The notes under the pieces were generated by a model, which was not told the DNA's origin, searched no databases, and saw only the letters and a program-made list of their open reading frames with translations. Both the position numbers and the translations under genes were made by a program. DNA of 56,526 bases, counting the filler, from Platydemus manokwari (taxonomy: Eukaryota), in assembly GCA_037951405.1 (NCBI GenBank). It is 5 parts of 5 records of this genome, joined end to end, with 100 filler letters (N's around TTAATTAATTAA, not from the genome) between each part and the next. Parts side by side here need not be neighbours in the genome. Positions count along the whole stretch, not along the records: positions 21,928 to 33,031 come from JBBMOY010906642.1; positions 33,132 to 42,854 come from JBBMOY011213211.1; 3 more parts are not named here. The stretch is one strand, 5' to 3'. The first letter of the stretch is position 1. Each line of letters opens with the position of its first letter. Positions 22,880 through 47,610 of the stretch are shown here, piece after piece.

Positions 22880-25000
22880 TGTAACCACGTTACTCGCCTC
22901 CTTTTAAGGCCCCCCATCGCTTCAGTCACTCTAATCGTCTGTACTTTATCGTATGAGGGAATTAAATCTCTACTTGTCTTTCAGACTTGAATCCGGTAAT
23001 TCGTTAGGGACCTTCGTACTGGTATCCATTCTTCTTCCTCTTATGGAAATCTATAAGAACTAGCATCTTCCACCTCTGTCTCGGTTAGTCAATATGTTGG
23101 TTGCCACTTTAGAATTATTTCTAGCTGCTGTTGCAATATCATCTAGAGTCTGGTTCTTGTGACTCACATCCGTATGGACATTAATCTTCTGTTCGTAGAT
23201 CACCTCGACAGGCGAGAACTTTTTTGTTGATTGATGTGTTGAGTTGCTGCACAACTCTACTCGTGGCAACAATTCAGAACAACTTTTCTCGAGGCTTTTG
23301 CTCTTAAATCATATCTCATACTGCCCTGATGACTCTTTCTGCTAGCCCCGTTTGATTGATGCTGGTATATTGAGCTTAATTTTTGTTTGATTCCCAATTT
23401 TGAAAACGCCTTTCTCATAAATTTGCCTCCAAATTGTTTCTAATTATCAGATAGAATGCACTTTGGCTTTCCAAAACGTAAAATCTACGACTTCAAGATG
23501 ACTTGGAAGATTGCCTTTTCGTCTTCCTTAGATGTAGCAGTGAAGCTCACCATCTCGCTGAATTTGTCGATAATGACTACTAAATATTTCATCTTTGATT
23601 AGTGTACATTTCTCAGAATTCACTTTCAAAACCAACTCTTGAATTCGTTGAAATACGGATTCCAGTAGATTGTCATGCTCTTGCTGATGCTGTAGATAGT
23701 CCAAATGGGATTCTGTTGAAGCAGTATTAGCCGATTCTTGTGCTAAAAGCTGTGGAACTTATTTCGATTTGGTAATAAGCCTGCCCCAATTCTATCTAGG
23801 AGAAATATTTAGTATCCACTAAACAGTCTAGACACTTATGGTATAGAGAAACTAAATTTTTCTGTCACTCCATTGAGTCTTCGATAATCCACACACATCC
23901 GGATCGATCTGTCCTTTTTTCTTACAATGACCAGGAGTGAAATCCAAGCACTCTTGAATGGCCTTATTACTCCTATTTTGAGCAAGTTTTTGATCACATC
24001 TTCAATTTTTACTTCTAAGCGCATGGGCTGTCTTCTGGGATTCTACGAAATAGGATATCTTGGATTTATAATATCGTGAACAACTAAGTTGGTTTTGACT
24101 ATATCCAATTTCGAAGCCATTAATATTTTTCCGTATTTCTTAACGAGTCTTCAAATTCTACCTGTGTTCGCAGTCTTCATCATTTTCAGTACGTGTGTCT
24201 ATCTTTCCTCATCTGTATATTTTTCGCTACATTCTTGTGAATAGATTGTGACTTTCTCTTTCAGCTGACTCTCGAATGCATTCATTGTGTCAACACCTCC
24301 TATGAATTTGGAGCAAAGTTTTTTTTAATTACAACTCTAAATTTCCTTTTCTTTCCTTTCCACTAGCAATCACTTTTCCATAATCCAGAGGGCATTTGGT
24401 ACCCGTTGAAAGCACTCTATTAAGTGCAATCAAGGTATCCTGCAATTTTGGCCTTGACTATTTCTTCCAATAGTTCTCGCTCATCACTGTGATAGATGCT
24501 CCAGAATCCCACAACATCTCTACTTCAGCTTCGTTGATCAACACTTTACTCCAAACTCTAACGTCGTCCTTCTTAAACATCTCTTCAAGTCTGTTCACAT
24601 TTCGAATTTTTTTGTTATCTATTGATTCAACCCCAGGGACGAAATGTATGCGACGGAGTTGTTTGATATTCTACTTCGTGCATCATTGGATATTCGATTG
24701 GATCAAATTGCTCCTCAACCTCGTCATGAATACATAAAATTTTACCTTCTAATCTCTGTCTGGTGCCTCCTATTAAATGGCACGACCGGAAATGATGGCC
24801 TTCTTGTCAGCATATTAAACATTTGTGCCTAACTGGATACTGGCTTTTGTAATGTTCGCTTTGTCTCCGCGATAGCGTTCTTCTTTTTTGATCTGGCAAA
24901 GCCTCAACACTTATTGTACAGTTTCTTGGCTATGTATTTTATCGAATACACTGTTTTCTTTCTATCTTAAGTGAACTTCTGTTCTGAAGCTATTGGCTCG
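22880..25000 (-). mobile_element. Decayed Ty3/Gypsy LTR retrotransposon (gag-protease-RT-integrase remnants)
   Basis: Protease EVEMLWDSGASITV (~24485-24535); RT IVRKKDRSIRMCVDYRRLNGVT (23836-24024); integrase KYLVVIIDKFS and ILSDN*KQF (~23420-23590); purine tract near 22893-22918. Many stops and frameshifts. Confidence 0.9.
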
Positions 25001-25089
25001 GATTTCCATGTTCTGATAGTATATAGTGGTTCATAATTGCTTGATTCATTACTTTCTTTTTTGAACTGGTTATTGCACCGTTTGCTTCT

Positions 25090-26565
25090 TACAGTGAAAG
25101 ACAAGATCATATTAGAAACTAAAGCGTGCAGAAAGAAGATTTATCTAAAATTAAGTAGATCTTTTAAAGAACCTTATTTTATGGAAAAAGTAACTGAAAC
25201 AAATTATGTGATAAGCTTCCTGGGACAAAGCAAGCCAAATCTATTTGGATACACTTCAACTGTTGTAAGCGGTAAGAAGACGTATTACAATCAGAGACCA
25301 AGTCAAACAAGTCGATGAAAAACATTTATGATACAAAGAATACAGATAATAATAGTTCTGTGACCACATAAATACCTCCTACATTTCAAGTAAATGATGT
25401 TTTAATGCTTATCTGCTGTTATGCTTATGTTGAGCTACAAACGCTTGTAATATGTTCATTGTGGACATTCAAATGGGAAGAATTTTAGTTAAGTGCAGAA
25501 CCGCAGTATTATTATAGTGTTTCATTGATTAGGCAAATTCGATCCGATGTAAAATTAAACTCACGCACCCAGGATTGATCGAAGATTGAAAGCCAAACTA
25601 GACCTTTCCCATAATAATTCAACAATGAAACAGTAATCCATACTCTAGTGAAGTTGAATTGAGGACGACTAATACAGTAGAAGAAATATAGCATGTTAGG
25701 TAGATCACAAATCGATCAAAGGAGTTACAGGAACCAATGAAATAACACTAAAAGGGATCAACACACACAGATTGGATAAGCCAATATACCGTCAGTCAAT
25801 CAGATTCGCTTTAATATTAATCCATATTTAGAAGATAAGAATCGATAAGCCCATGCCTACAAATGGCAGCAAACTCAAATATCTGCCAATAGAATAAGAG
25901 ATACGAGAAAAATTTCAAACAGACCGATCTACGAATGAATTCAGGAAATTGAAAATGCAGACTCGGGACATCAAGTAGACACACCCGATGGGTGTATAAA
26001 AGAGGTTGAGTTCCATGAATAACTGCCAGTCTTTTTAATCAGTAATTTGTGCTTTAATCCTGAATTTGTGTGAATTCAATAATCAGTCTTTTCGATTACT
26101 TTTTATTCTGTTTTTGACGTTTGGATGCTGATCCCGTCTTGTGTGATTGTAAGTTGTGAAGATGTTTAACCGTATTTGTTCTGATTACGATTGTAATATT
26201 TTGCTTAATATAGTTTTCAGATCTTATTGTCAACAGACATATCAATCTAAAAATCGAAAAAGATTTGAAGATCATTTTAGTCTTCCAATGACAGCACAAA
26301 ATACGGCACAGCGGAAACGATCGAAGAACCTACATGCGACATAGATGAAGAGACTACGTCAATAGCTCTAGATCAATTGATCAACAGTGACAAAATAGTT
26401 GGTATATTCGACATTAAATTGGAAAACATTTCCTTTGATGAAGGAAAACCAAACTTGAAGAAAACGAGAATGGTCTCACTCAACCTAAGTATCAGAAAAA
26501 GCGAAAAAGGACAACCATATCTTCCAAAACAAATACACAAATTTATTGTATTCGAAAGAAGATAG
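25090..26565 (+). mobile_element. Second Gypsy-like remnant: integrase C-terminus, putative LTR and 5' leader
   Basis: KLSRSFKEPYFMEKVTETNYVI resembles the GPY/F module of integrase. Purine tract near 25470-25481 and TATAAAAG near 25995. Confidence 0.55.
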
Positions 26566-27850: not shown

Positions 27851-28367
27851 TCAATGTATTTTGCAATGCAGGTAAATTTTTATTAATTATGTAGCAAATT
27901 TATGAAAAAGCAAAAGAAATGTTTCAAAACAAAATTTTCAATTATGAAAATATTAAATATATGACCTGAAAAATATCAGTTCTGTTTTCAAATTTTTTAA
28001 TTTACCCTAATGATAACTTCAATTCTTAACTCAAAATTATACAATTATTTAATAAAGCTTAAAAAATTGTATTATATGTATTTAATAATTTTCAAAGTTT
28101 GATTTATCTAAAATTAATTTTTGGAAATGTCAAAATAATATTTTGACTTTAAATTTAATGGAAATTCTTAATAACTTTGAGAAGCATTTATAAGTCAAAA
28201 TAAAATTAACTAACAACTTGTTTCTATACAAAATTAAAATTTTCTAAATTTTTGTTGTCAACCATTTAATGAAATTGTATTGTTTCGATGATTCTAAGAA
28301 TATTCTTTTATATTTGTTTATATTGTGATTAAATTTGATTTTACAATTTTATTTTAAATAGTTATTT

Positions 28368-29415
28368 ATGTCGAACGATAAGTTTGATAATTTGTTTTTG
28401 AGTATAGCCCAACAATGTGAAGACGGTGGAATAAAGGAGTTATTAAATTCATTCTTTGGATTTCTTGGAAGAAGAACAGATTTCTTTTATGGAGCTACTA
28501 AAGAAGAAGCTCTTAAAATCGTAAATGAAACTTTCGAAATTCACCAGGTTATTAATAACTATTTTAGATCACATTAATAAAAACATTCAGAAACAATCTA
28601 TTGTAAAACATAACAAGGAGAAAAAAGATCGTGAAGAAAAAGAGAAATTGAGAAAACAAAAACAACAGAATGAAATTAACAACAAAAAATTAAATGATTC
28701 TGAACCACGTGTCGTCGAATTAACCGACGAGGAAGCTGTACAGATGCAAGCTGAAATTGATGCTGAAAAAAATAAAACCCAAGAAGTCGCAGTTCCTACG
28801 CCAAAATCCGAAGATGATCCTGATGAAGATCCCAAAGATAAAAATAAACTCAAACCTAATGAAGGCAATGGAGCTGATTTACCAGAATGTAAATGGATTC
28901 AATCTTTGAAAGATGTTGAAATTCGCATTCCAACTAAAGTATGAAATAATTTTATTATGATAATACTAATTCATTTTTAATAGGTAAATTTTCAAGTCAA
29001 ATCACGAGATTTAATAGTTATCATTCAAAAAAAATATATCAGCATATCGTTGAAGGGTCAAGCACCATTGTTAGAGGGAAATCTCTACAATGATATAAAA
29101 ATCGAAGAATCTACCTGGACAATTGAGGATGGTAAGACCATATATGTATCTTTAGAGAAAGTCAATCAAATGGAATGGTGGAATCGAGTAACGGATAAAC
29201 AACCAGAAATCAATACCAAAAAAGTGAATCCAGAAAATTCCAAGTTGTCTGATCTCGATGGTGAAACTCGCAGTATGGTTGAAAAAATGATGTACGATCA
29301 GAGACAAAAAGAAATGGGACTACCTACTTCGGAAGATCAGAAAAAGCAGGATTTATTACAGAAATTTATGAGCCAACATCCTGAAATGGATTTTTCCAAA
29401 TGCAAGTTTAACTAA
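28368..29415 (+). CDS. NUDC: Nuclear distribution protein C (NudC), 319 aa; exons 28368-28547, 28591-28938, 28984-29415
   Basis: In-frame joins across 43- and 45-nt GT-AG introns. N-terminal [21 protein letters not shown], a CS/p23 domain, and C-terminal [27 protein letters not shown]...[16 protein letters not shown]. Confidence 0.97.
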
Positions 29416-31465
29416 TTATTCAATGTAGAAGCATAAATATAATTAAATTGTCTTCTTCAAGGAGGATTTCGTTTTGTTTTTAAATTAAAATAAGATTTGA
29501 TCTTCTACTTTGTAATATAAAGTTTTCACAGTCTTTATTATAAATAAAGAAATGGTAAAAAAATCAATTATTTTGACTAGTTTTCGTCTCAGATTTTGAT
29601 AATTTGTTATAATCTGCACGTTTGAAAAATGTTTTATTAGATTAAAATCTTGATTCAAAAGTACTACAAGCCACATCCACTATTGTTATGTCCATTACAA
29701 TAGTTTCGTGGCGGGTTAATTTGAATCAAATTGGTGAGGAGAATTTCCTGTAAATTCCGGTTAGTGCATAACATTTGTTGCGAAGAAATTAAATCTGGAT
29801 AAAACGTTTTATGGCTTCATTTAATAATGCCTAGATGAACCATTTTCGTTATTATTTATTTAGTATCTCTGATATGAGTGAGCTTTTCACAAACGGTAAT
29901 TTTTGGCATGCATTTTAAAAACGTTAAAACAAGCGCATGTGGAATATCCGTAGAGTTGTCATCACTATATCACTTGAATCTAAAATAAATGGAATTAAAT
30001 GGTCATTATCTACGCCGTAGATTCTACGGTATCATAATCATTTACCGTCATTAGTTAGGTGATGAATTCATTGTTGAAAAAGATCTCCAATATGTAATAT
30101 CATTGGAATCGGAATTTTCCTTTTATCTGCAGCAGAATGTGACTGGGTTTTTTGAAGAAGTGGGAATGATAAAGGTTGAAAACTGAATAAAATGAGTCCT
30201 CCAGATATTGTGTATCTGAGTTGATATAAATGTGTAACATGATCGGTTTGTGACATTTTCATGCCGTCTATCACATGCACATAGATGTCTATATTGTGCT
30301 CCTTTTCTCTTTCATATGAACATGTGTGTAGAACTTTCACTTTATTCATGGAAGCAAATTGCAGCATAGTATGAATTCCGGTAGCTTACCACATTTAAAG
30401 ATTCCAGATTAAGAGAATTTTATCTTTTCATCATGATTCAGAATTCAGTCGGATAAACGGGATTTGGGGCATTATAGGATTCGAGTTAACTAAATATTTT
30501 ATTATACAACTTCAAAATATGATGCGCGTGCAGTAAATTTTGTTCCTATTAAAAGAAATTTTAATTAAGCGGATTTCTATAGCTACATTTTAGAGATCTT
30601 AATCATTTGTAAGATATATTTAAGAATCTCAACGAGCCTAAAAGTATGAATGATCTTTTCGTAAAAATATAATGACCAATTTAATAATACAATGAAAAAG
30701 ATTTAAGTTCCAACAATAACTGCACAATTTGTAAAACGTGTTTTAATAAAAGAATCAAATTAATTTGATTTCAATATGAGGTATTCATTTAGGAAAATGA
30801 CAATCAAAAAATGGAATAATCAATTACAATTGATACAATGTAAATATCAATTAAATAATAGCAAATAATGAAAAGGAAACAGAAAATTTTCAATTAGATT
30901 ATTTAAATTTTATTAGGTTTTATTGAAATATAACTGATTTTAAAGAACGACTTCTATGGCAGTGACCGTATTAAACCTCAAAAGCCGCTGGACGCATGAA
31001 GGTGGTTAGTACAAAGAGTTCTGTAACCAGGTTATTCGCGCAGACTTTAGTCTTGATTTTATAGATTGGTTGGGGTGGGTTCAAGAAAGATAAAATAATG
31101 ATCATTAAATATTGCTTTTAAAATTATAAAGAGATAAGAAAAATGTTTATTTCACCTCACACAGAATCTCAAAGTAATGATAAGTTTTTTATTGGATTTG
31201 GTTTGTAAGAATATTATAGGACTAGTTTTCCTAAGTGAATGGATTTTTCATAATGTGTTCAGTACTTTTATATAATTCTTCCTGTGTGCTGTTTAATTAC
31301 ACAAGTATTTGATTTTTCCAAAAAATGTAGATGGAAGTAATTCAAAAATCGCTAACATTTTAAATTTGTTGGGAGATTCTTAATAATAATTTACTAGTAT
31401 TTATATTATTTTTTATTTCTTTGTTATCTCGTTTTATTATTTGTTGCACTATTTTATTAACTTAA

Positions 31466-31671
31466 CCCTTTCAATACTGCAGGGATATATAAGTCCCAGA
31501 GAATGTTCAAAAATTACTGATGCGAAAAATATTGTGTCCCAAGGCATTTTTTCAAAAAACCATATTTTCTAAAAATCTGAAATTATGTAAATATGCTCCT
31601 TTATTTATTTGCAGCACATGTAGTTCAGTTATACAAAAATATTTTTACTGGCCAAAGTCGTATTGAAAAGA
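31466..31671. mobile_element. piggyBac-type MITE (206 bp)
   Basis: TTAA on both sides (31462-31465, 31672-31675); termini CCCTTTCAATAC / GTATTGAAAAGA form a 10/12 inverted match. Confidence 0.75.
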
Positions 31672-33031
31672 TTAAAATGTAAATAAGTCTGACAAATAAA
31701 ATGACATCTCAATGTTAATTTTGCTAATCTAATGATAAAAATTTGGCACCAAATGTTAGAGAAAAAAATTAAGCAAATTAAGCTTTTGAAAAATCTCAAT
31801 TACAGCAAAACGGGTAATTGCAACTTTCATGTTTATTTTAATGGTGATGATTATGTTAATTGTAAAATTGTGCGTATCAAATCATCGTCCTCTCAGAAAT
31901 TGATTAAACGCTTATAGTTGTTAGTAGTAACTATTTCGTTTAAAGTGGGAAATTCAATAGAAATATTCATTTCGAACGTATTTTTAAATTATTTATAAAT
32001 ATCAAGTAAATTACACATTTTAAAAACAAATTATAATCTTTTCCAAAGATCTTAAACTCTCAATCTTAATCAGGTAAGCAAATAAAAATATTGAAATTAT
32101 TTAAAAGTCACTTGATATTAAATTTAAATAATTTAATAGAATTTCAAAATATTATTTTTCATTTTTAAAATTATTAAAATTATTATAAAATTGTTATTAA
32201 AATTTTTTAAATTTTCTTCACAACAGTTATAAGCAAAATCTCGTGTAAAGAAACTAACACAACTTTCAAGAAACTACCCGAATATCCGATTCTTTCTCTT
32301 GGATTAGATTTGGTACCAATGACCTGGATGCTAGCAGTTTTTCCTAAAACCAACCGTTATGGTGTGATATCTTCAACCCTTTAAATTCACAAAGTCACAT
32401 CAAATTAAAATTCTGTTATTTTATTGGTGAAATGTCATCATATCTAAGGATTTATTGTTTTGTATTATTAATAAGTTTTAGTGGCCTTCCTTATATTGAT
32501 TTACACATGCAATCCAAAACTTGAAACTAATCAAATTATTGGTGAGAAAGTCCCTATTACCTAATTCAATATTTTATTAAATAAATTTTGTGACCTATAA
32601 CACAAACGAAATTCTATTACAATTCTATAAAACCAAAATAGTTTTTACATAAAATCTGCGGATCCACTCAATTTCATTGTTCGAGTGATATTTGTGTTCA
32701 TATTTACCATATTTCTTTAGGTAAAACTGCCACCAGTAAATAATATCTTTACGTGCTTCAAACCTTATTTTCAGACGTGTAGGCCACTGTAGTGTTCACT
32801 ACTCTTGCAGGATGAGGCCTCGCTACATTTCTGTAATCAGCTATTTAAACAATTACTTTCTAAATCATAATATTTATTGCTGAGGAAATCTTTTGGATTG
32901 TCCTCGAGTTCATCAGACTTAATGTCATATAATTTCTCTTTTGTAGCAATATAATATAAATGGTGTATCAGAGTAATCCTCTAAGCTTCAATGAATTTGA
33001 AAATGGAATATGCAACACAAGAATTTATCAT

Positions 33032-33131
33032 NNNNNNNNNNNNNNNNNNNNNNNNNNNNNNNNNNNNNNNNNNNNTTAATTAATTAANNNNNNNNNNNNN
33101 NNNNNNNNNNNNNNNNNNNNNNNNNNNNNNN
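33032..33131. other. Artificial assembly linker
   Basis: N44-TTAATTAATTAA-N44. Confidence 0.97.
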
Positions 33132-35602
33132 GTTTAATTCATTGCTGATTGGTTCAATTAATAATTGTTTAATTATTTACCAAGTTAATCAATTTTTTGC
33201 TTATTTTTTCATTACATTATTTAATAATATATTATCAATTTAATTGTTTCATTCGTTATTTATATTTAATTAATTGTTAATTTATATATTATCAATTAAT
33301 AAAGGAGGAATTTTATTTATCTTCACATATTTTATCGATTTTTTTCGTTTTAATTAAATTGCACTATTAAAAAATTGTAAGCAAAGTTTATTTCTCATCA
33401 AGATTAAAAATCTGAAAGAAACAAAAATAATTATGTTTTTATTAATTGAAGCAGTATCAGTCAAACTGAAAATCACTCAATTTAACTTGATTTTGATTCG
33501 ATTGGAATTGACAGAAAAAAATGTGTTAATGCTACCAAAATACTTTTATACATCAATCAGTTTATTCTATGGATATTCTACATAAGAAAAATGAAACGGG
33601 GTTTTTAATAATATCAAATATTATTGTTATTGATAGGCGGTCTCAGTAATGTTACATTGTTAATAGTCCTCAACCTCAACGATATGCTGTGGCCCAAAGT
33701 AATTTCTCCAATGTAAATACAAGTCATTTTCAGAAATAATGTTACTTAATAATATAAATAATTAGATTCTTAAAAATGTCTCTGTTTACATTAAAAGGTG
33801 TTGTATTGCAAACTCAACAACGTGGGTTCTTATATTCAAATATTGTTTGTGGTTTTCCTTTGAAATTAACCAATGGCAAAGTTTTGTTTACTGATTGTTA
33901 AAATGGTTTACAAAACAAATTGTTAAATATTCAAGCAATTTATCTCACACCATTGAATTTACCCAAAGCAAGATTCAGATGGCTTGAAGAGTCGCGAGTT
34001 TATTGTTTCAAATAATTTTAGTTTTTTTAAAATTTAAGGTGATTTTTTTGTTATACAATTTTATTATTAATCAAAAATAAATTTTTTCTCTACTCTTATT
34101 TTTTTTTGATTTCAAAGGAATGGTTCCTAGAATAATTTCACTGCCTTAAAGTCAAATTTATTCTTGTCTATTATTATATGTATTTCGGTTATAATTGTAA
34201 AAGATATTAACCCTTAGTTTTATCGTTATTTAATCTTTCATTGTTTTTTAATACTTCGAATTATTATTAATTGTCTTATGGCTAAAATCCATAATAATCT
34301 TTCAATTATTTTAAAATAATAAATAAGAATAATTATTATATCGTAATTATGATTAAATTATATTTTTAATAAATAATTTTACAAACATTGTGAATTTAGA
34401 ACAACACAAGCGAATAAAAATACGTAATCATTATTATAAGCGGATCTAATATCGAAAGTAAAAAATCAAAATAAAATTATCGAAAATCTCGGTAAACGTA
34501 AAATGATTTTCAAAATTAACGTCGAATTGATTGATGGGTTGGTTTGAATTATTCTTATTTATTTAAGCCCTTTGTCAGTTATCGACATTCACTTTCTATT
34601 GTGTTTACCAAAGGATCTCCTTTGTTCCTCAATTTATCTATTCTCAATCCGCTTCAACTTGGCGTATGCGAAGGTAGTCCTAATTTTATGAGCACATTTT
34701 TCATGTGATGATGAATAACTACTTTGAAATGAGGGATATTTTGCTCGTGCTGCTACCAACAAACTGGTTGATATAACATAAAATAATAAAAGCCAACGAG
34801 TACAATTAAATATCGGAAACAAAACTAAGTGTATCTGACTTAGTAGCAGAACACCATTGCGAACAAAATATGACAATGAATATCTTTTACATCAATCCAA
34901 ATCGTTTTAGCTGTTGTGCTAATAGTAATTTTAACTTAGAATAATTACAGTAACCAAACTTAAATATACATAATTATTAATTATTAAAACTATTTATATA
35001 ATCTATTTTTGAAATGTAAATGTTAAATTTTTTTTGAACTGCATTGTGATATTGAAAAAAAAAATTTAACCCATATCTTATTTATAAATCTTGAGTATTG
35101 AAATAAGTCATAATCATAGGATAATTTAGCATTATTCTTTAAAATTCACAAAAATCATTAAATTAAAATATTTAAAAATTTATTCTTTATTATAAATTTT
35201 AAATTTGAGATAAATTATTAATCGAAATAGGTAATACTTAATTAAATTTATTAAATCATTAAATCTGTTAGATAAAAATTAAAATTAATTACATTAAATT
35301 TTGAAAATTTAATTAAAAATTTAATTTTAAAATTAAGATTTTAATTAATTAATTTCTTTTTAAAAGTATTTATTTTTTAATTAAATATAAGAATTTTTAC
35401 TTTCTATTTCAAATAAAAAAAAGTCCAGTATTTTTGAATTAGAATAATTTAATATAAATTTCTCTTTTAAATAAGTTTCTTTGATTTGAACACAAATTTT
35501 CAAGATTTAGTAATAGATGAAAATATTTGTTTAAATATAGTATTTTAATCTTATTTTCAATTGCAAATTTTTGTATTGTTCCGATATTATCACTCTAAAA
35601 AT

Positions 35603-37576
35603 ATGGTTTTGAAAAAAAATGAAGTGCATCCTTTACCGTCGATAACAAGTTTGGACAGTCATTTGAAAAAGAACATAGTTATACAAACAGAAGATATTCG
35701 AGGAGTTGATGACTTGTATGCGTTTTTCTTGGCGTTTTTAGCATTTCTTTGTCTTTTGACAATTGACGGAACTTCTTATACAACAGGATTATTAACAGAA
35801 CGCATTCAAACTCATTTTAATATCAGTTCTCTTCCTTTGACTTTATTACCAGGAAGTATGGTTACTGGAATATATCACATAGTTGCACCATTTGAAGATG
35901 CATTAAGTGCAGGCAAAAATAGACTTAGAAGTAAAGCGGCTGTCGGTGCCCTGATTGCTGGTATAGCGTCGTTAACTTCGGCATTTTTAAAAAATTATTT
36001 TGCATTCATAATTTTTTCTGGAATAATTATGGGAGTAGGATTGGGATTGATATTCATTCCATGCATTGCATTAATCAGTTCTTGGTTTGTCAAATACAAA
36101 TCATACGGAATTTGCTTTGCGTATTCTGGAACAGGATTTGGAATATTTATTTTTAGTCAATTCTTTCCATTCACTCCAAAAGGATTTCAATTTGAAGGTC
36201 ATTATATTGGTATATCTATCCTATGTTTCTTATGCGCTGGAGCATCACTATTCTTTAAAAAATCAGATAAATATCTTGAAGAAACTTTATATGAAAAGAA
36301 AAAGGAAAGCAGAATGGACATAATAAAAAAATTGGATTTCGAAGAAAAGTTAAGAAAGGAAAACAAAATCATTAAAACGATGTTAATAGATAAAAATCGT
36401 AAAAAATCAATATCCAATTGTTTCTTTGACGGAATGGTGCTTACAGTCAATAACGATCTAATTCCAGTAACGACAAGTACTGCAGCTTTGTACGATGAAC
36501 CTCGTCTAACAAAAGAGCAAATAGATCATATAACTGAAGTTGTCATGCAAAAACTTCAAGAGGAAAAGAAATCTGTTCATGAAGCTATACCACATGATTA
36601 CGAGGATATTGTACGGGATTATATTCAATCTAAAATTGTGATAAATAATCCTGGCGAATCTGCTTCACTAGAAATTACGAACATGGAAGAAAACAATTTC
36701 ACCATGTATGGAAAAGAAAAGGAATTAGTAATGTGTTCAATTAGAAGAGAAATAGATAAAATATCTATCCAAAGAGTCACAGAAGTAGCACAAACTGAAG
36801 AAATTACTAAAATTGAATCTTTTCAGTCTGGTTCACCCGTACAATCTATTATATCTATTAACAATACTGAATTCGGAAAAGAAATGATTGCCGAAGCCAC
36901 AAAAGAAAGTAATAATTTTTCCCAATCTTTGTGGAAGAGCCCGACATTCTTATTGATAATATTTGGATCAATTATTGCTGGATTAGAACTTGTTACTCCA
37001 TATTCATTTATTCCTCTCTTTCTAAGAGCTCATGGCATCAATGAAACCGATAGTTCAACAGTGATATCATTGATGGGTTTAACAAATATTATGGGAAGAA
37101 TTTTAGCAGAAATTTACGTTCAAAAATTAGCTGGAAGAATAAGTTATGATGATTGTCTTTGGTTTCACAATGGTGGTTTACTCGTCGCTTCATTGTCCAT
37201 TTTATGTTCGGTGTTTGTATTCAATTATTATCGGCTGTTTGTTTTTCTCTGCTGTTTACATTCTACAAGCATGATATTTTCCAATTCCATTCAAATAACG
37301 ATGGTTCTGGATTATCTTGGATCTTATGCATTAACAACCTCATACACTTACATTCTTGTGACTCAAGGTATATTTATGATAGCCGGTCCTCCTTTACATG
37401 GGTTTTTGCTTGAAAAAACTAAAGGGGACTTTACTATTGTGTTTCTTACAATTGGTGGATTAATAGCACTTTCTGCGGTGGTTAGTTGTTTTATTAGATT
37501 AACATCTTATCTAGAGAACTGTACAATAAAATGCTCGGATGATGTTGAATATGGCGATGAAAACCATAAACAATAA
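35603..37576 (+). CDS. Monocarboxylate transporter-like MFS protein (SLC16/MCT family), single exon, 657 aa from the first ATG
   Basis: Uninterrupted ORF with two bundles of hydrophobic helices separated by a long hydrophilic loop. MCT-like motifs GIIMGVGLGLIFIP...WFVKY...AYSGTGFG, MGLTNIMGRI and AGPPLHGFL. Confidence 0.9.
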   Translation: MVLKKNEVHPLPSITSLDSHLKKNIVIQTEDIRGVDDLYAFFLAFLAFLCLLTIDGTSYTTGLLTERIQTHFNISSLPLTLLPGSMVTGIYHIVAPFEDALSAGKNRLRSKAAVGALIAGIASLTSAFLKNYFAFIIFSGIIMGVGLGLIFIPCIALISSWFVKYKSYGICFAYSGTGFGIFIFSQFFPFTPKGFQFEGHYIGISILCFLCAGASLFFKKSDKYLEETLYEKKKESRMDIIKKLDFEEKLRKENKIIKTMLIDKNRKKSISNCFFDGMVLTVNNDLIPVTTSTAALYDEPRLTKEQIDHITEVVMQKLQEEKKSVHEAIPHDYEDIVRDYIQSKIVINNPGESASLEITNMEENNFTMYGKEKELVMCSIRREIDKISIQRVTEVAQTEEITKIESFQSGSPVQSIISINNTEFGKEMIAEATKESNNFSQSLWKSPTFLLIIFGSIIAGLELVTPYSFIPLFLRAHGINETDSSTVISLMGLTNIMGRILAEIYVQKLAGRISYDDCLWFHNGGLLVASLSILCSVFVFNYYRLFVFLCCLHSTSMIFSNSIQITMVLDYLGSYALTTSYTYILVTQGIFMIAGPPLHGFLLEKTKGDFTIVFLTIGGLIALSAVVSCFIRLTSYLENCTIKCSDDVEYGDENHKQ

Positions 37577-40500
37577 TTGAACTTGATAAATATCAGGCAA
37601 AATTCAGATTTTGTATATAAAAACAATTCAGATGTACATATTGATCAGTCCAAAAATTATTTTTTGATTAAAAATACAAATATTTTCGTGTGCAATTGTT
37701 GTCCTCCAGCTTATATATACATATCAATTCATTCATGAAATTGATAACAAATCACATATTCATTTGCGTTAAATATTTAAAAATTATCTTGTTCATCAAT
37801 CAAATTTTTGATTACGTAACACAGTGATTATTGTTTTTGTCGAAAATTCTTATAATGTTGCCATTTATTTCACAATTGTTTCTGTAGACAAAAATTAGAT
37901 AATCAATGTAAATGAGTGATTTTTCAATTCAATTTTAACTGAAATTTAATACAACTGAAATTCTTATAGGAAATTTTTATTTAATAGAAATATTATCTGA
38001 ATTCCAGAAAACGATGACACACTATTGATGATATATTCAGACATAATTCAGCAAAAAAAATTTACTAATTATTACATTTCACTGGAAATTTTGAATTAGT
38101 TTTGTAGATTTTTACAGCGGATAAATCTATTTTTAATTATAAATTTTATTCTGAAGACTTTGCAATACAGATTTGAGAATCAGGATGTATATTATTCAAT
38201 AAATAAGATCAATATTGTATTCCTTTAAAAGAATTTTTAAAAATCTAACGTTCTAGTAATACAAATTGAAGAGGTAGTAACTGGATACTAAAATCTAATA
38301 ATATTTATTTAATTTAACTAAAGAAATACAGTTGAAAGAATATGAACCATGTAAAATGATATTTCCCAATTAACTTATTTGGGGAAAGAAATCGTTAAAT
38401 TATAAAGAAACTTTTTCAGATCAATTATTATAGTAGTTTTAGTATAATTATTCAATTTTAGTGTTTGTATTATCAATATCCTAGAACTATCAATGAGTTA
38501 TTGCTAGGGGTTCCTCATAGTATGATTGAGGTTGTCTACCACATATTCTACCAGTGTCAAATTCACCTAATCTTTGATTTTGTAACTTAATGGTCTGGAT
38601 GTATTTCATATGTAGTATACATGGAGAGTTCAAAGAAATCTCTAACACACAAACTTCTTTCAAATGAGGTAGTTTACTTTTCTACTATGTAAAACATTAA
38701 GTAGCTATTAATTTTATCAATTGTTCAATTGAGTTTTTTACAAATTTAATATCTTCTAAATTTAATTTTAAATTTTAAAATTTTTGAAAAATAATAATAA
38801 TTGTTAAAGAAAATAAGACAAACTAAAATCTTTTTTGTTGTTTTTTCATTATTTTTTGTAAAATTTTATAAAATAAATTAGATAAAATGGGTTGAATAAA
38901 ATTTTGAAATCACATTTAATTTTTCTCAACATTTTTTGCAATTCTTTTCGGTGCTTTACTTTGTTAATATATATAGATCTCAATTTGAAGAATCTTCAAT
39001 TTTGTTTGTTTGACTTAATAATTAGTTAAATAAGTTGAAAAAAATTTATGATGGAAGATAAAGAAAATGAAATTTATTTATTGCTCACAAACGAAAGTCA
39101 AAAAGGCTTTCAATTTTATTTTTAATCAGGAAAAGTTTTGGCAATGAGTCAGGAAATTGATTTGTTGAAAATAATAAATTGATAATGGTTATTTGTCATC
39201 GTAAAATTGTAAAATATATTCATTTTTGAATCTTACAAATTTTTTACATTGTCTTTTTAAAGAGATTAATATGATTTTAAATGTTAAAAATATCAATTTA
39301 TTATAACTAATGTTACTTAACTGATAACCTTTAACCTTAACATGACACATGATTATTCGATTTGTATTAATGAAGAGGTCAATTCTGATGTGGTTTTTTG
39401 AAATGTTTGTTTATTGGTGTTGCTGATAGAATATTTATGTAGAAAAAAATTCAATTAATAAAGGAAAAATGTGGTATTTTCGAATTTCAATAAATTGGAA
39501 TGATATTTTAAAAAGGGTACCTGATGAAAATTCTACTGATAGTACTTATAATTTTCTTTATTTAATATAAATTTTTATAAGACAATATAGAAATATACAG
39601 ATTGGAGTTGGTTTATACAATTATATAACTTAATAATAATAATCAATTAGTAGAGAACATGTTTTCATGTTTCGAATTGTCATGAATTAAAGTTTTATAA
39701 GGAATTAGTTTCGTCAAGATTAATTTAACACTGAAGTCCAATTAAATAATTTATTTTTTAAAATATTTCAACCTGTACAGTTTTTAATGTAGGACTAAAA
39801 CTTTGTACTTGGAATTCAAAGCATCTGAAAGAAGAAAGGCATTATATTTAGGTAAAAAGTAGTATTTTTAAAATGTTCTGAGGCTCTTATTAAAGAAAAT
39901 TTAATTACTTTACCTTTTACTTTGAATCCTCTGACTGCAAATTGATTGAATAAATGATCAGCTGTATTACTACATTTTTCAAAATTTTCAATAATTCGAA
40001 ATGGTCATTTATAAGTTTGATTGTTTTGAATTCTAATACTAATATACATGATCATATTTCTTCTGTAGAATTGTAGTAATTCTCATTTAGGTGTTTAGTG
40101 CTTTGTTTTCTTTCAATGCCAAGAATGTATAGCGATTTAATTTACATAAATACAATTTATAGTAACTTCAATTACTATCGGTCGCTCAATGTTTGGCATT
40201 TCCATATCAAATAATGGAAATGATTCTAGACATGGGCCCTAATTTTAATGTTATTTTATCAGTTTTAAGTTAAACTTATGGTAAAGCCATATACTGAATC
40301 ATAATATTAAATTGTATGTAGCTGTTGTGATTTTGTTTTGATTAGTTCAAGTAACAGAAACGAATATAAATGTGGGAATATTGCTGTGCAATAACTATGT
40401 GAACCTCTGGGCTTACTAAAAATCGTGTACAAACTTAGGGCAGTTTCGTGGTCGTGGTAAATATTTTTTTCTTATACTAGAGCTTCACTAACCCATATGA

Positions 40501-41346
40501 TAATGTAATAACTAAAAGTAAGTATCAAAAGAGTTTCCTAAACTCTTCACTAAAATCCAGTGGATATTACAAACAAATTATAAATATATTATGAACTAGA
40601 ATAAAACACAATTTAAGCAACATATTACGAATGCTTAACCAAAAAATGGATCATTAATTCAATGAGAAGTCGTTAATACAAAAATATAAAATATTTTAAA
40701 ATGTGAAAATAAAAAAATTCAATTCAAATAAGATGAGAATCCCAAAATTTTGAATAGTTATCAAAAACTTCATTTATGTTCAAAATATTGAAATATCGAA
40801 TAAACATTTTCTTATTTTTCTGGATCACTGAAATGTTTTAATTATACTTTTTAAAAAAAGAAATTTGGAGAAAAAGAATTTTGACTTGTAAATTATAAAA
40901 TATTTTATGCTTACTAGAAATATGGGTATACATTTAGAACTCAATATTGAACATATTAATTATATTGGTTAGTAAAGTCAAGATAGTCAAAAACTGTTAC
41001 GTTTGCATGTTCTACTAAACTACGATGCAAACATTATTCTAATAGATAAGCTTAAGACTGTGTTAAAAATAAAGATTATAAAAATAAAAAATGAGCCTAA
41101 AATTTTTAAAATTACTGAAATATAAAATGTTATTAAAATATTTTTCATATATTTCTATGACGTAAGTATTGTAATTAAATATAATATAAATTAAATGGAA
41201 TAAACTTAAATTGTAATAATAGATATTATCATCCTTTACATCACATTTGTTTTAATATTTCATTTCTATAGTATTTTAATAGCTACTTATTAAACCATTA
41301 GCAAATATTTTTATATAAATTTTCTTTCTTTCATTCTTACCATAAA

Positions 41347-42566
41347 ATGTATAGCAATATCACACAATCAATTAAAAAAGATATTATCGACAAAGCATGT
41401 GTTTTTCGAATCGTTTTGGAAAAGATATCTCTGATAACTGATGGAATGTTTCTTTTACGATTGACAGTTACATCATCTAGTTCCAATGAAAAAGGAAATA
41501 TAAGATTAAGAAGCCAAAATTCCGAAAAATTCATACGGGATTATTTTGTGAACACTGAAATGATAGGGCCTGTAATTGAAAGAAATTATTATTTCTTTGA
41601 GCGTGGTGAATATAGTTTTTATCTTCCAAAAGGTTAACGAAAATAAATTAAAATTTGATAATAGACGTTAATATTTTCCAGGATTTTGTAAAAATCTCAT
41701 GGATTGTGATGTTTATTTATTAATTGAAACATTACAAATATCGAGTGATAGTAAAACTAAGGTGGTTGGCTCAACAAAAATTCCCATATATCCTCGACCA
41801 GATGTAATTATTAATTTTAATGTAGAGATCGGTGATTCATTTTATCAATTCAGAGGTACAAATAACCTCTTTTTAGTTTTAATTTCGTATTAAATATTAA
41901 TCTAGGCACATCTGATATCATTCATAGTGATGATTCCACAAAAAATGAGATTTATGGCCATCTCGTCTATCAATCGGAATTAAGTGAAATCCGAGAAATA
42001 ATTGAGAAAGATGATGAAACGGATCCAAAATTGAAACCAGAGATTTCCAAAACAAAGGATTCAAAAGCTTCAAAAGAGAAAGTAAAACCAAAGAAAATCA
42101 TTGAAGTTTCGTCTTCTACGATGGTTAAAGAAAAAAGCAAGGTTTCACCGAAAACGAAATTACCAAAGCGCAACATTCGAATGATCGAATGCGGAATGCC
42201 GCCTCTGCCATTTTTAGATATTCCTATTCACAGAGAAACAATTTTCCCACCGAGAGATGTAAATATTTTGTTTATATATTTATTGATTTATATTTATTTG
42301 TCAAACATGTTCTCTTCAGATTTTTGATCTCCTGTAATTACAATATAAATAGTCGGATAAATCTTAGATTTGTTTAAATATTCGAAAAAATCGCGTGTCA
42401 CTTTGGAAACAATAATTTTTGATGGAAACCAACGATGTTTTTACTGACAGCTAAGTCAGAAATAAATGCTCTCACGACAGCCAAATGGGAAGAGAGGCAG
42501 AAAACTTTTGTGAATCTGTGCCAAAAAACTCAGAAGTCATTGATTCTGAAGTCGTTGTTTAATAAG
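41347..42566 (+). CDS. CCDC33: CCDC33-like protein; clean exons 41347-41632, 41682-41855, 41906-42258; exon 4 (42320-42566) is open only with four +1 shifts at stop codons; the gene probably continues to the contig end
   Basis: Spliced translation contains FYLPKGFCKN...DVYLLIETL...VGSTKIPIYPRPD...DSFYQFRG, matching my recollection of vertebrate CCDC33 (FTLPKGFCKN...VGEAIFPIYPRPD...DLYRYCG). Introns are 49, 50 and 61 nt GT-AG. Confidence 0.82.
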
Positions 42567-42854
42567 GTTTATGAGGTTCAGTAAATTAAACCTTTCTAAT
42601 TCCAACCGGTAGTGTCCACCGATAAGCAGATTTAGTAGTTCTTTCTTTTAGTCAACACATACCAGATGAAATTATATATCTACGATTTAATAATCAGCTC
42701 ATCAATCGATTTGAATTTTAGCTCTCATTTTAAAACAACCATAATTTGGCTGATATCCTTCAATATAACACTGATAATATTAACAACAATATAATCTAAC
42801 GAATACAAGGTTGATTCCCATCTTGGAAATAAAAACAACCTTAATAATATTAAT

Positions 42855-42954
42855 NNNNNNNNNNNNNNNNNNNNNNNNNNNNNNNNNNNNNNNNNNNNTT
42901 AATTAATTAANNNNNNNNNNNNNNNNNNNNNNNNNNNNNNNNNNNNNNNNNNNN
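42855..42954. other. Artificial assembly linker
   Basis: N44-TTAATTAATTAA-N44. Confidence 0.97.
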
Positions 42955-43017
42955 ATTCCCATTCGCTTAACATTGTTCACTTTAAAGATATTAACAATTA
43001 TTATGATGTGCTGTTAG

Positions 43018-43218
43018 TTCCTAAAGTTCCGTTTGAGCACCCAGCATACAGTGTACATGAACCAAGTGTGGCAGACCAAGTCTCAACTGTCACGATAAAA
43101 GTAATTCGCACTGGCTCCACTAATGAGACAGCAAATGTCAGATGTAGCACCAGAGATGGATCTGCAATATCTGGTTTTGACTATAATCCAAGGTCACTTA
43201 TGCTGGAGTTTAAACCAG
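43018..43218 (+). CDS. Calx-beta domain exon (phase 1-1) of a FRAS1/FREM-family extracellular matrix protein
   Basis: PKVPFEHPAYSVHEP...VTIKVIRTG...VRCSTRDGSAISGFDYNPRSLMLEFKPG, flanked by AG and GT. Other exons were not found. Confidence 0.88.
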
Positions 43219-46184
43219 GTTTGTGTGATCTATTATCAGATTATATTTGATAACGTTTATTTTCACGTTTCAACACATTAAAGACGTTCAAATACAACTA
43301 TTAAGAGATTGTTTTTAATGTTGACTTTCTTGAAAAATCATTTAGAAAGTAGCACATAAAAATTATAAAGATCAATGACACACACACACACATTGAAGTG
43401 TTTGATGAAGATTGAAACATATCAAATTAAAAATACATTGGATGAAAATAAACGGATTGATAGAATATCATGATTGATTAAAAAACAATGAGAAAACTAA
43501 ACTACCTCCACCATTTCTCATACAAAGATACGGAAATCGCAGCAAATTTCCCAAGCCAATATTGAAACCCATAACACTCATGAAAAAATCCAATTTTCCC
43601 AACCACAACTCACGATTGGTTTTCGGTAAAGCTGCCTAATTATAATTTAAAAAAAAAAACCAAATTTCTAAATCAAATACAATTCAATGAAAAACTTACT
43701 TTATCATCTGGTTGTATATGTTTGATACAACAAGCTAACATTTTTCGTTATTATGACAATTGAATTTTAACTATAATCAATACATTATATTTATTTATTT
43801 AATAATCTGATAAAAACAATAACCGATGTTCGAAATCTGAATTACAAGATGAAAATTATTATAAAATAAATTTCTAAAATCAACAATTGAATGGCGATAT
43901 AATTTGTCTGAAAATTAATCTTTAATATTTTAATATTTTCAAATCTATTCAGATCGCCAGAATCAAGATAGAGAGAGATAGACCGTCTCAAAATCGTTGA
44001 TTGATTAAACAATTGTTGTTGTAACCTTGGTTTTTCATTAAAATAAAAATGTTTTTTCTTTCCAATGAATATTACAGCATGGTTTGTTTTTATACACAAG
44101 AGAGTCAATATTATCGATGAGTAGTGTTTGGTAAATTCAATAATAGCTCAGAAAATAATGCTATAACGTGATCAAATCGAGAGAGACCATCGATCGAAGG
44201 TTAAACATATTGCGATGTTTTGTTCACATTTTGTTATTGCATTTCGACTTAATATAAAAAAATCAAAATCTGACCTTTTCTTTTACAAAGGTTTTAGAAG
44301 GATTTTCAGTGATCATGTCGAGATATCACTCAATGATTACCCACCCAATAAAAAGCATACTCAATTCATCTTCAACAAATCATCAGACATTGATTCTTGT
44401 CGATTTAAACAAATATTGGAAATACAAAATGAAACCCAGCAACTTTGTTTGAAGAAATTTCGACGAAATAAAATCCAACAATATACTAGTAAACATAATT
44501 TATTAATCTATTCAATGTGGATCGAAACGTGGACAGTGATGGAAATTTTAGTTTCAAAAAATTATCAATTTTCTTTTCAAAACCACTCGACATATGTTTG
44601 ATATTGATAATCCTAGAAAGTTAATTGTTTTCGTGTGGATTTTCAACCACGAAAATAGGCCAGCTTATTTCATATGAAATGATAAAACTGAATTTGTATT
44701 TCGAGAATTTTATATCAAAAGTCAAATAACAGATAAAATTATTGGCAAAAAAATAAATCATGATAACATGAAACTTTTGTTGATATCAAGTTCTCAGGGG
44801 TGTCTTTGGAGAAACCGTGAGAAATCCACCATCTGTCAGATATGGGAATCATTCTACCCATAATGTCCAAATGAAAAACTATAACGGTTTGCTGTGATAA
44901 ATTATTAAAGCACGAAAATAACTACAAGTGATTCCATCAACAATAATACAGGGTCATATCATTTGTTATTGAATGATGAATTATTGAGTGGTATGGATTG
45001 AATCGTCCATTCGTTGTATGTTCGCATTGTAAATAAATATTGAAATGAACAATAGAACATGTTTCAATCATGACTAAACAAACTATCATTGGATTTTTGC
45101 ATTACGAATTGGATTTATCATTATTATAAGTTTATTCATAATAATAACGAATTATGAACAACTTCAAGTACTATTTATGATTTGATTATTATATACCTTA
45201 CGATGCTATGTAACAATTAGTTTTTTGTGAACCTAATGTTGAAAAGTTTTCAAAATTTCCTCTTTCGCATAAAAATGAATTAAAAATTAAAATTTAATTT
45301 AAAAAATAAATTAAAAATCTAAATCATTATATCATTTATAATTTATATCGAAAACATAAATTATCAATTCTATTTGTTTAAATAATTTGATTAAGTATAC
45401 TTTATATGTTGTGACTTTTCAATTCATCTTCATAAGTTTCTTTATAAATAATAGCTGCTTACAAGAAAATGCTTACCACATAAATGGATTCGAATCCGAA
45501 AAGATCATTGATTTAAAACTATAGTAGCAAGGAGGAAGATATAAAAATATAGAAATGTATATCTAAATAAATATCTAGAAAATCAGATGCAGAGAAAATT
45601 CAGAGTAGATAGGAAATCAAAAATTTTAATAACAGGGGGCTGTAGGGATTTCAAAATGAATGAAAATTGATATGATTTATAATAATAATTTAAATAAAAA
45701 TATAAATTATTAATTTTATTCGTTTATAGTTCGTGCTTTATGAATAAAACGCAGCGTGGAAGTAAGTTCTATCGGAGGGGTTATTATATCCACACTTTAT
45801 TTGTTTCCAGTAATTTTCTAATCAGAAATGTTATATTATCAAATTAATCCAATTTTTAAAATTAAATTCAAAGATCAAATAATTAAAAAATATTTGATCA
45901 CAAAAAAGCTTTCTTTCAAAAATAATTACGTGTTGTGATTTCATTCACATATGTCGTAATTGTTGGAATAGCTGTAAAATAAACCCTTTTATCTGCGAAT
46001 GTTTTCATAGAAATTTCCTTTGCATCATTCTTGTGATGATTTTATAATTTAAATTTAAAAGATTTTATTTATTAATACCAAACGACATTAATTTGTATCA
46101 AAAACTGCAGTTGAACAAATAATTTTGTGCTGTAATTTCTCATTTGGTTTCCAATACATTCTTTATTAAACAGTGATGGCTTAC

Positions 46185-46655
46185 AATTCTGATTCATAAT
46201 TTGAGATGCCGATAGATCAAAACTAATTGTGATTTTTGAATGGTTATAATATTTATAATATATTTAATTTTTATAATCTATATTATTTAAAATCATTACT
46301 TATAGGTCATTTCGTCAAATTCGAATCGAGCACTCACGTACCCTTACTTGTTTGAGCTAAAATCGGGTTTTTTGTAGATTACGTAACTTAAATCAATAAT
46401 TGTTAATAGTAAATTATTTGGAAAAGACTGTAATTTGTTTTTGATTTCCAATAGCAGACTTTTCCTATAAAAGTGTTTTTGGTTTTGATTTATTATTTAA
46501 TAATTGTTTTTACGAATTCATATAGTTGTGATTTTGATCGATAATATATTTTCACATAATTATTTAATAATAGACTGATAGTCGAGAGAGTTGATTTGAA
46601 TTCTGATTCATAATTTGAGACGCTGATAGATCAAAACTAATTCTGATTTTCGAAT
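46185..46655 (+). repeat. ~57-bp direct repeat (46185-46241 and 46599-46655)
   Basis: AATTCTGATTCATAATTTGAGAyGCyGATAGATCAAAACTAATTsTGATTTTyGAAT occurs twice. Confidence 0.9.
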
Positions 46656-46908
46656 ATTTATAATTTCTATAAACATTTTAAAGTGATCTTAACAAACAGT
46701 TTCAAAAAACAACAGAGAGTTAGGTTTGAAAGATATGAGTTCTTTAATAGAGATTGTGAGAATTTTAAATTAAATTAAAATATTTTAAGATTTAATTTTA
46801 TATAAAATTATATTAATTTGTTAAAAATAATTGTCTTTAAATATATTTTGGTGTCGTGACTTTTCAGTTGGTTTTCGATGCGTGTTTTAGAAAATAATAG
46901 CGGCTTAC

Positions 46909-47610
46909 AGAGATGATTATTTAAAACGCCATTGTTGTGTGCTACAAGATCAAACACTATTTCATATCATTTGAAATTGTCATTATTGTCGCAAATGAAA
47001 TGAAGATCGAAATCTAATCAGTATTTTTAACAATAAATTGAAATAATCTCATGGAAAATGAAACGAAAATTCGTTTCGGTACAATTAAAATTTGTCGAAA
47101 TGTACAATTATCATATTTCGATATCTCATTCATTATTATTAGGAAAATATTCCAATAATCATGGAAATTTTTTTAGAATATTTATTCATTAGATTTAATT
47201 ATTCATAATTATTTAGAAATAAAATATTGTACCTCATAATAACTAATTTAGAAATATTAAATATCATGGGATATTGTGAGTTTGCAATGCAAAATGAATT
47301 CTGACTTGAATTATTTATTGTTCCCAATAACCAGATAAAAACCTGAATATCCAATAATGGCCGAGATAAAAATCTATTCATCTTCTACTTATCTTCAATA
47401 TTGGTCCGTCCAATATTGGTGATGTTTAAAAGTGATGTTTAGACTGTTTTTCTGTGATGGGATAAATAGTCGTTCCGGTTTCTTGCTCTGTACTGGTTGT
47501 TTAATAAATTTCGAATGAGTTCACCTGTTTAGTATGAGTTTCCATTGATCAGTGCATGTACTTGCTCAGTGTTGTACATGTAGTGTCTTTGTGCCCAATA
47601 TTTTAATCAC
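46909..47610 (-). other. Putative recoded exon
   Basis: CAG acceptor to GTAAGC donor; open runs of 35, 58 and 48 codons separated by clusters of 4-nt stop units. Confidence 0.5.

Follow-up and report, generated by a model that had tools for sequence, protein, structure and literature searches.

Minus-strand exon-like blocks interrupted by stops around an intact transporter gene in Platydemus manokwari, read as possible gene relics

We analysed a 56,526-nucleotide stretch of the Platydemus manokwari genome (hereafter the window), composed of five parts joined by artificial linkers, in which a preliminary description had read one large recoded minus-strand gene at 29485..40595 hosting an MCT gene. 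NudC (28368..29415, plus strand) is intact and ends at 29415, tail-to-tail with the minus-strand blocks as had been claimed; its best matches stand at 73-74%, and a close relative was not found. The presumed guest, at 35603..37576 on the plus strand, is an intact single-exon transporter of 657 codons without a stop, whose ORF (35549-37576) gave an intact MFS_1 match in a profile search. It is MCT-like and presumably belongs to MCT/SLC16. Head-to-head with the blocks lies a second plus-strand neighbor (41347..42612) with three open exons, followed by a GC-rich stretch (42320-42612) stopped in all three frames. We presume that it resembles CCDC33, only the first part being on this contig; sequence searches of its exons (Pfam, PDB, ESM Atlas and a word search) gave no confirming match for its identity. 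PMC12796433 gives CCDC33 three C2 domains and a coiled coil and places it at the tip of motile cilia. A CCDC33 motif search across papers and the available supplement text of that article found nothing. Across 2,487 codons, the identified genes of the window (seven genes or gene pieces) are free of internal stops, and they terminate in TAA or TGA, on which grounds a stop-to-sense reassignment was rejected; an IQ ORF of 832 codons, for instance, terminates in TGA.

The linker that had been noted at 33032..33131 is present and consists of 44 N, a 12-base stop-in-all-frames spacer and another 44 N. A linker of the same type at 42855 interrupts an SLC6 gene recognized by profile search: the exon at 43471-43635, 516 nt from that linker, matches profile positions 1-41 of 524, and its continuation was absent beyond it in 85 of the 90 minus-strand ORFs scanned. 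Because such a linker cuts the SLC6 gene, the join across 33032 is unproven. A single large gene hosting the transporter would have to cross this linker and to use acceptors at 38681, 34934 and 30545, which score at most 2.0 (candidates near 34934 at most 1.7) on a scale where 13 known acceptors, each left out in turn, score 1.5-8.5; that proposal is not supported.

What remains is a series of exon-like blocks on the minus strand. At the 5' end, pieces within 39760..40595 are stopped in all frames; they include a 62-codon open run (40004-39819) with an in-frame TGA just before it at 40007, and an intron-like GT-AG gap at 39913-39825 (donor 6.9, acceptor 6.5). A weak AT-rich block at 39150..39545 (GC about 21%) carries a 73-codon run (39410-39192). 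The first block of the preliminary description, 38330..38681, is open over 38681-38493, meets TGA TAG at 38492-38487 and continues as a +1 run at 38491-38378; the run lengths around TGA 38492 were reproduced, with 63 open codons upstream and, downstream, 38 in +1, 5 in +2 and none in frame. Next come 34424..34934, where an 85-codon run (34891-34637) of weak codon signal is followed by dense stops, and a weak block at 33560..34030, where frames 0 and +2, and not +1, give the best junctions. Past the linker, the contig-edge block 32649..33031, at single-copy depth, contains runs at 32980-32840, 32844-32761 and 32795-32628 and a donor-like site at 32707, and a small block at 30930..31120 holds a 48-codon run (31117-30974). 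The strongest block, 30046..30545, has a fresh-looking run of 105 codons (30385-30071) that ends at TGA 30070 and whose codon signal (31 bits) is of the kind seen in real exons. An intron-like GT-AG segment of 66 nt (29980..30045; donor 6.7, acceptor 6.7; GC 30%, above the 13-26% of known short introns) follows, and then a 3' block with dense stops (29485..29979) in which codon signal often favors frames other than those proposed.

Several properties make these blocks look like exons. Their GC content is 30-35%, compared with 13-26% in nine known short introns, long minus-strand stop-free runs exceed chance (P = 0.004, 500 shuffles), and the minus strand is preferred in seven of eight GC-defined blocks. 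Both GT-AG gaps, 30045-29980 and 39913-39825, score within the range of known sites. The claim of exon-like blocks on the minus strand is thereby supported. Codon signal in the 16 segments originally delimited was 0.067 bits/nt. Chance open runs gave 0.053 and held-out real exons 0.106; an intermediate value is what coding DNA should show if it is eroded or partly mis-framed. No ordinary spliced ORF covering the blocks was found; the best ordinary gene models span 132-346 nt, and their scores in the three parts (16.8, 2.5 and 16.9) compare with 100-162 for the control genes of the gene finder's own training. Tiny introns at the stop sites were considered and rejected, since known introns are at least 43 nt and AT-rich, a 16-nt GT-AG at 32856 being the lone case.

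Read depth was 12-24 at 90% identity over 29348-31202 and 32316-33031, indicating single-copy sequence. Contigs of run X1, possibly the window's own source, showed no differences and no gaps at 28307-31489 and 32295-33020, and assembly indels were rejected as the origin of the stops given this agreement where compared and the clean neighboring genes. A high-copy repeat occupies a supposed intron at 31203..32315 (summed contig depth 18,000-22,000, then 347).

As had been reported, no homolog of the blocks was recognized, here in profile, PDB, phmmer and ESM Atlas searches with single-frame pieces as queries; as these do not represent a protein read across shifts, they could have overlooked a distant family. 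Pfam searches on 28, 29, 90 and 74 pieces returned weak unrelated matches only, an SNF exon excepted, and NCBIfam on 13 pieces, Rfam over 28300-40600 and a tRNA scan were blank. PDB sequence search gave no homolog for the blocks, and the ESM Atlas no usable match for the 105-residue run or for CCDC33-like exon 1, which is weak evidence. The sole phmmer match to 30490-29927 (X at stops, 1.84 billion representatives), P0001, was discarded as a tandem-repeat sequence on the intron-like part. The word-search tool is weak here because the intact transporter and the CCDC33-like exon also gave nothing. An AlphaFold2 model of the single 105-residue sequence (pLDDT 44) had no fold match at E<=0.001 and carries no weight. 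Neither synteny nor a match to the blocks was seen at 80 NudC metagenome loci, and a tree of NudC relatives gave no resolution. No parent or ortholog of the blocks was found with tools that also missed the CCDC33-like exons and the intact transporter.

We then examined the stops themselves. All 17 quoted stop sites were located by DNA context, and the pieces quoted can be read in standard three-frame translations of 33031-32600 and 30620-29440. Ten of the sites are TAA, seven TGA and none TAG (p = 0.025, post hoc). The +1 frame is the longest continuation at 5 of the 17 and stops again after one codon at 5 (base rate 15/143, p = 0.027). Among the junctions of the blocks, frame 0 continues best at 40474, 40007, 33816 and 29644, and +2 does so at 39355, 33744 and 33616. 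At TGA 30070, one in-frame break suffices where three shifts in nine codons had been proposed. AAA precedes 5 of the 17 stops, three of these being created by the preceding skip, and none of the 14 listed +1 junctions.

Coding-like junctions nevertheless lean toward +1 at strict thresholds, with 0/+1/+2 counts of 6/14/6 and 3/9/2. Shuffles give P = 0.02 and <0.007 for these counts, and real control DNA gives p = 0.11 and 0.03; at a looser threshold (13/17/12) the excess fades. In the blocks picked by the preliminary description, on which this result rests, stops after at least 25 open codons are followed by a mean run of 25.2 in +1 versus 12.4 in +2 (18:8 of 26). A looser definition gave 24:22 of 46, and GC-defined blocks gave 23:20 of 43 (P = 0.16) and 10:7 (P = 0.43), showing that the +1 preference varies with block choice and threshold. 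A model left free to call frames switched to +1 at 38495, only 3 bases away from the TGA, and made 10 +1 versus 4 -1 switches. Upstream overlap is short (1-2 codons) at 38492, 32839, 40139 and 34933. Upstream of the 14 +1 junctions, the open stretch in +1 averages 12 codons, which equals chance, versus 22 expected for random insertions (p = 0.02). The strict-threshold excess was attained in 1-4% of runs simulating decay and in 9-11% of those simulating T-insertion recoding, which favors recoding over decay only about 2-3:1, with low power. The proposal of recoding is left with a modest +1 excess among the most coding-like junctions, and is not borne out at the quoted sites where +1 is not the longest frame or at the several junctions that favor frame 0 or +2.

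Stop-coupled +1 recoding would have the ribosome slip at internal TAA or TGA, or an extra U removed, to yield one or two long proteins. The precedent is Euplotes, for which PMC10235951 describes a non-triplet code with +1/+2 frameshifting at internal stops: shifts occur at UAA and UAG, mostly after AAA (+2 after AUA), UGA encodes Cys, and about one-fifth of genes carry up to eight sites each. The decoding assumed at our locus is this very mechanism, an extra T making a stop at which the ribosome resumes in +1, and the excess at strict thresholds, the longer runs in +1, the short overlaps, the switch at 38495 with its 10:4 balance, the missing TAG and the lean of the minus strand of contig 1 (5/18/10) all speak for it. 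In contrast with Euplotes, seven of the 17 sites are TGA and none TAG, AAA not made by a skip stands at only 2 of 17, and sites are far denser, with 17 in the quoted text alone against the maximum of eight per gene given there, while neighboring genes have none; the absence of sites from the 2,487 codons of identified genes covers few genes if about one-fifth carry them. Programmed +1 frameshifting at a stop is also known from ornithine decarboxylase antizyme and prfB (PMC10235951), where shifting and terminating are likewise alternatives at an in-frame stop, but each such gene has a single site that is conserved, regulated and helped by stimulators, whereas here there are many sites with no shared context. 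The fading of the excess under looser or blind definitions, the junctions favoring frame 0 or +2 and a similar lean in CLK introns on the plus strand (4/12/6) argue against recoding as well, and a literature search found no case in animal nuclear genes, for which a stop-triggered frameshift code would be new; it is unlikely. We give little credence to a spiralian that decodes a subset of its nuclear genes in non-triplet fashion, shifting to +1 at internal TAA or TGA or editing out a U, with sites denser than in Euplotes and housekeeping neighbors read in triplets; that subset might consist of ciliary or germ-line genes such as this one, the CCDC33-like neighbor and a gene in contig 1. If true, Euplotes-like non-triplet decoding would, by the literature search, be new to animal nuclear genes, genes would be hidden from annotation, and position- or tissue-dependent termination would be testable.

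Less exotic readings are also on the unlikely side. Two or more small ordinary genes could have genuine terminators in TGA TAG 38492, placing one tail-to-tail with the transporter, and in TGA 30070, placing one tail-to-tail with NudC, the GC-rich DNA beyond being 3' UTR or relic; we consider this improbable. In its favor, the last bases of the best gene-finder models fall precisely on 38490 and 30068, and these models beat all eight shuffles (16.8 versus a maximum of 11.5; 16.9 versus 14.1), the stop at 38492 is double, good splice sites lie at 39913, 39824, 38594 and 32707, and the 43-nt first intron of NudC carries a stop followed by the +1 frame, mimicking the claimed pattern. Against it, these models span just 246 and 346 nt, one takes exons within the repeat, the 3' part yields a better score (21.7) when modelled antisense, and GC around the 17 sites (28-38%) exceeds that of known short introns. 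Remnants of old transposons that have diverged beyond the reach of profiles are similarly improbable: decayed elements do occur (a retroviral-type protease match at 24461-24670 and high-copy repeats at 22.7-26.4 kb and 31.2-32.3 kb), as do 26 further GC-rich blocks outside known genes, but a host gene is the better fit to blocks that share a strand and are separated by intron-like gaps. A match to known transposons, which had been named as refuting the claim, did not appear among the 28 ORFs scanned, which contained no transposon Pfam family (transposase, RT and integrase absent at E<=1 and in a further Pfam set); the depth-covered blocks are single-copy, and no second copy lies within the window. 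We doubt even more that the majority of blocks are plain non-coding DNA with somewhat raised GC, in which only one or two runs (30385-30071, 38681-38493) were ever coding. Codon signal does fall near chance without the best segment (0.063 versus 0.053), the frame model gains more on the plus strand in 3 of 11 blocks and nearly equally in several more, and the gene-finder score of the middle part resembles shuffles; the minus-strand enrichment weighs against this, and simulations with no coding reached the +1 excess in just 0-2% of runs at two stricter thresholds.

Altogether, the observation is partly confirmed and its interpretation partly supported, and our preferred reading, for which our confidence is moderate, is that the blocks derive from exons of at least one former minus-strand protein gene, now decayed and probably no longer translated as one protein. 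Unprocessed pseudogenes, whether unitary or duplicated, are recognized by disabling stops, exon-intron remnants, homology to a parent and neutral evolution. The blocks resemble such relics in lying on one strand with splice-like sites, mixed breaks, eroded signal and a single copy; their stops and frame breaks are not removable by ordinary splicing, and the two GT-AG gaps look like exon-intron remnants. They differ from a typical pseudogene in that no parent or ortholog was identified, because of which decay is not demonstrable by alignment, and in that +1 breaks are somewhat over-represented. Exon-like GC, minus-strand runs, stops in all frames and single-copy 3' blocks are what was observed in its support, and the mixed lesions, with best continuations in frame 0, +1 or +2, count for it too. 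The +1 excess counts against decay, as does its unevenness, the 105-codon run looking fresh and the first three CCDC33-like exons open. Under decay, the exons would once have been coding and would have been broken by a mixture of nonsense changes and small indels after selection relaxed, perhaps jointly with the CCDC33-like gene lying head-to-head, in which exon four is broken too. Any sequence can be read onward once each stop has its T dropped, and this gives rise to the "recoded" text. Relics would have little import beyond a hint of ciliary gene pair loss and a warning that skip-at-stop readings, together with stop-in-all-frames linkers, create false giant genes. The two sides of the 33032 linker would then be separate loci, and the transporter gene would merely sit between or beside the relics.

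The minus-strand blocks at 29485-40595 are real exon-like DNA, probably decayed. Their GC content is 30-35% (for comparison, 13-26% across nine known short introns), and when blocks were set by GC alone the longer open runs lay on the minus strand in seven of eight; the minus-strand enrichment in long runs had P = 0.004 (500 shuffles). The run 30385-30071 carries a codon signal of 31 bits, similar to that of real exons, and the GT-AG gaps 30045-29980 and 39913-39825 score comparably to known sites. All 17 internal stops quoted in the preliminary description were located, and its account of the TGA at 38492 held: there are 63 open codons upstream, and downstream the +1 frame stays open for 38, the +2 frame for 5 and the stop's own frame for none. 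Contigs of the read data set X1 span 28307-31489 and 32295-33020 with no differences and no gaps, which excludes assembly indels; X1 looks to be DNA data and is possibly the window's own source, so its agreement adds no independent evidence.

An ordinary gene does not account for the blocks. A simple gene finder gave the kinase, NudC and CCDC33-like genes 100-162, these controls being also its training genes, while three parts of the region scored 16.8, 2.5 and 16.9, with models spanning 246, 132 and 346 nt. Homology searches with single-frame pieces of the blocks (Pfam, PDB, ESM Atlas, NCBIfam, phmmer and AlphaFold2 fold matching) were all blank, which carries little weight, since the intact transporter and the CCDC33-like exons likewise escaped some of these tools.

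The blocks had been described as a single 11-kb gene hosting the transporter, an extent that was not borne out: it crosses the linker at 33032, and the acceptors needed at 38681, 34934 and 30545 score at most 2.0, compared with 1.5-8.5 for 13 known acceptors, each left out in turn. With scores this low, nesting of the plus-strand transporter in a minus-strand gene is only weakly supported. Linkers of 100 bases join contigs at 10197, 21828, 33032 and 42855. An SLC6 exon at 43471-43635, matching positions 1-41 of a 524-position profile, faces the 42855 linker 516 nt away, and no continuation was found beyond it in 85 scanned of 90 minus-strand ORFs of at least 20 codons. This linker therefore joins unrelated contigs or conceals a large gap, and by inference the same applies at 33032. 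Within 42855-43635, a plus-strand Calx-beta exon and this first, minus-strand SLC6 exon both need partners past the linker, which suggests that the linkers join non-adjacent contigs.

The window is AT-rich animal DNA (GC ~26%). Its identified genes are a kinase, which we take to be a CLK, an IQ-motif ORF, NudC, the MFS transporter, and the Calx-beta and SLC6 exons; the gene at 41347-42612 is presumably CCDC33, hence CCDC33-like. The best named relatives of NudC are molluscs and trematodes (73-74%), and its tree gave the window sequence no firm placement; the animal is probably a spiralian, and the collections searched contain none closely related to it. The IQ ORF (18959-21457, minus strand) is intact and acidic, with 832 codons and one IQ motif near its end.

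We further investigated whether the blocks are recoded by stop-coupled +1 shifts, which would be very surprising if true. The original decoding dropped the T of each internal stop and continued in +1; removing the first T of any stop always yields a sense codon, so this procedure cannot fail on its own. A +1 excess at strict thresholds leans towards recoding, and several counts speak against a uniform rule: +1 was the longest continuation at just 5 of the 17 sites and halted after one codon at 5/17, against a base rate of 15/143 (p = 0.027). The best coding-like continuation was frame 0 at 40474, 40007, 33816 and 29644, and +2 at 39355, 33744 and 33616. At 30070, three shifts within nine codons restore the same frame, where one in-frame break suffices. 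Codon signal over the 16 decoded segments was 0.067 bits/nt (chance runs 0.053, held-out exons 0.106), and the absence of internal stops across 2,487 codons of identified genes also counts against uniform recoding.

After at least 25 open codons, stops in the originally described blocks were followed by 25.2 codons in +1 and 12.4 in +2 (18:8, n = 26), but at a threshold of 15 the split was just 24:22 (n = 46), and GC-defined blocks gave 23:20 and 10:7. Junctions filtered by codon signal favoured +1 at three thresholds (frames 0/+1/+2: 6/14/6, 3/9/2 and 13/17/12), with P = 0.02, <0.007 and 0.23 against shuffles; when real control DNA served as the reference, p was 0.11, 0.03 and 0.31. Control junctions themselves vary, with 4/12/6 in the CLK introns (plus strand) and 5/18/10 in contig 1 (minus strand). 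At the 14 +1 junctions the +1 frame was open upstream for a mean of 12 codons, where random insertions predict 22 (p = 0.02); the observed value, however, equals chance. Synthetic sequences reached the strict excess in 9-11% of runs with recoding, 1-4% with decay and 0/90 without coding, a calibration of low power whose loose threshold did not discriminate. After three thresholds tried, the junctions favour recoding over decay by a factor of about 2-3, too little against a low prior, so that recoding stays the less likely reading and, overall, a decidedly doubtful one.

Short introns can mimic such frameshifting: NudC intron 1 (28548-28590, 43 nt) contains a stop, with the +1 frame following that stop. 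The quoted sites, at 28-38% GC, lie outside the range of such introns. The skip-T rule operates like decoding in Euplotes, where UAA or UAG, mostly after AAA, shifts the frame by +1 in about one-fifth of genes, at up to eight sites (PMC10235951). The window sites do not match two defining features, the AAA context and the stop set, and are therefore not classed as Euplotes-type. Titles and abstract openings in a literature search yielded no case of stop-coupled recoding in animal nuclear genes.

The likeliest reading, at roughly even odds, is that the blocks derive from one or several minus-strand genes that lost selection, whose exons, now relics, would then have accumulated stops and small indels. 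Small ordinary genes with true ends at 38492 and 30070 are an unlikely alternative reading of the open runs there. Old transposon pieces are about equally unlikely; the 3' blocks occur in single copy, and a high-copy repeat (31203-32315) separates them. That the blocks are mostly chance is about as improbable as recoding. Exon 4 of the head-to-head CCDC33-like gene (42320-42612, plus strand, GC 33%) has stops in all three frames while exons 1-3 are open; it may be a truncation that left a relic tail, or else a candidate recoded exon, and may share the decay history of the blocks. CCDC33 works at the motile cilia tip (PMC12796433), and loss of a ciliary gene pair is our guess.

Elsewhere, the minus strand of 1-10150 holds exon-like blocks with many stops, open runs at 5540-5298, 4238-4008 and 1978-1715, the +1 lean noted for contig 1, and no match in Pfam or PDB. 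Plus-strand open runs at 44167-44601, 26281-26565 and 49934-50194 (144, 94 and 86 codons) had no Pfam match. A broken, high-copy LTR-retroelement remnant occupies 22700-26400, with a gag-type aspartyl protease match at 24461-24670. The 31203-32315 repeat is very high-copy; read-contig joints tie 27171, 28052 and 28090 to 31981, 32198 and 32463, and a self-search of the window found no direct match underlying them. Dispersed AT-rich repeats of 110-170 nt, 71-77% alike and in both orientations, lie at 45303-46909, 52609-53388, 54861-55011 and 16361-16473, a family that we would guess to be MITE-like.
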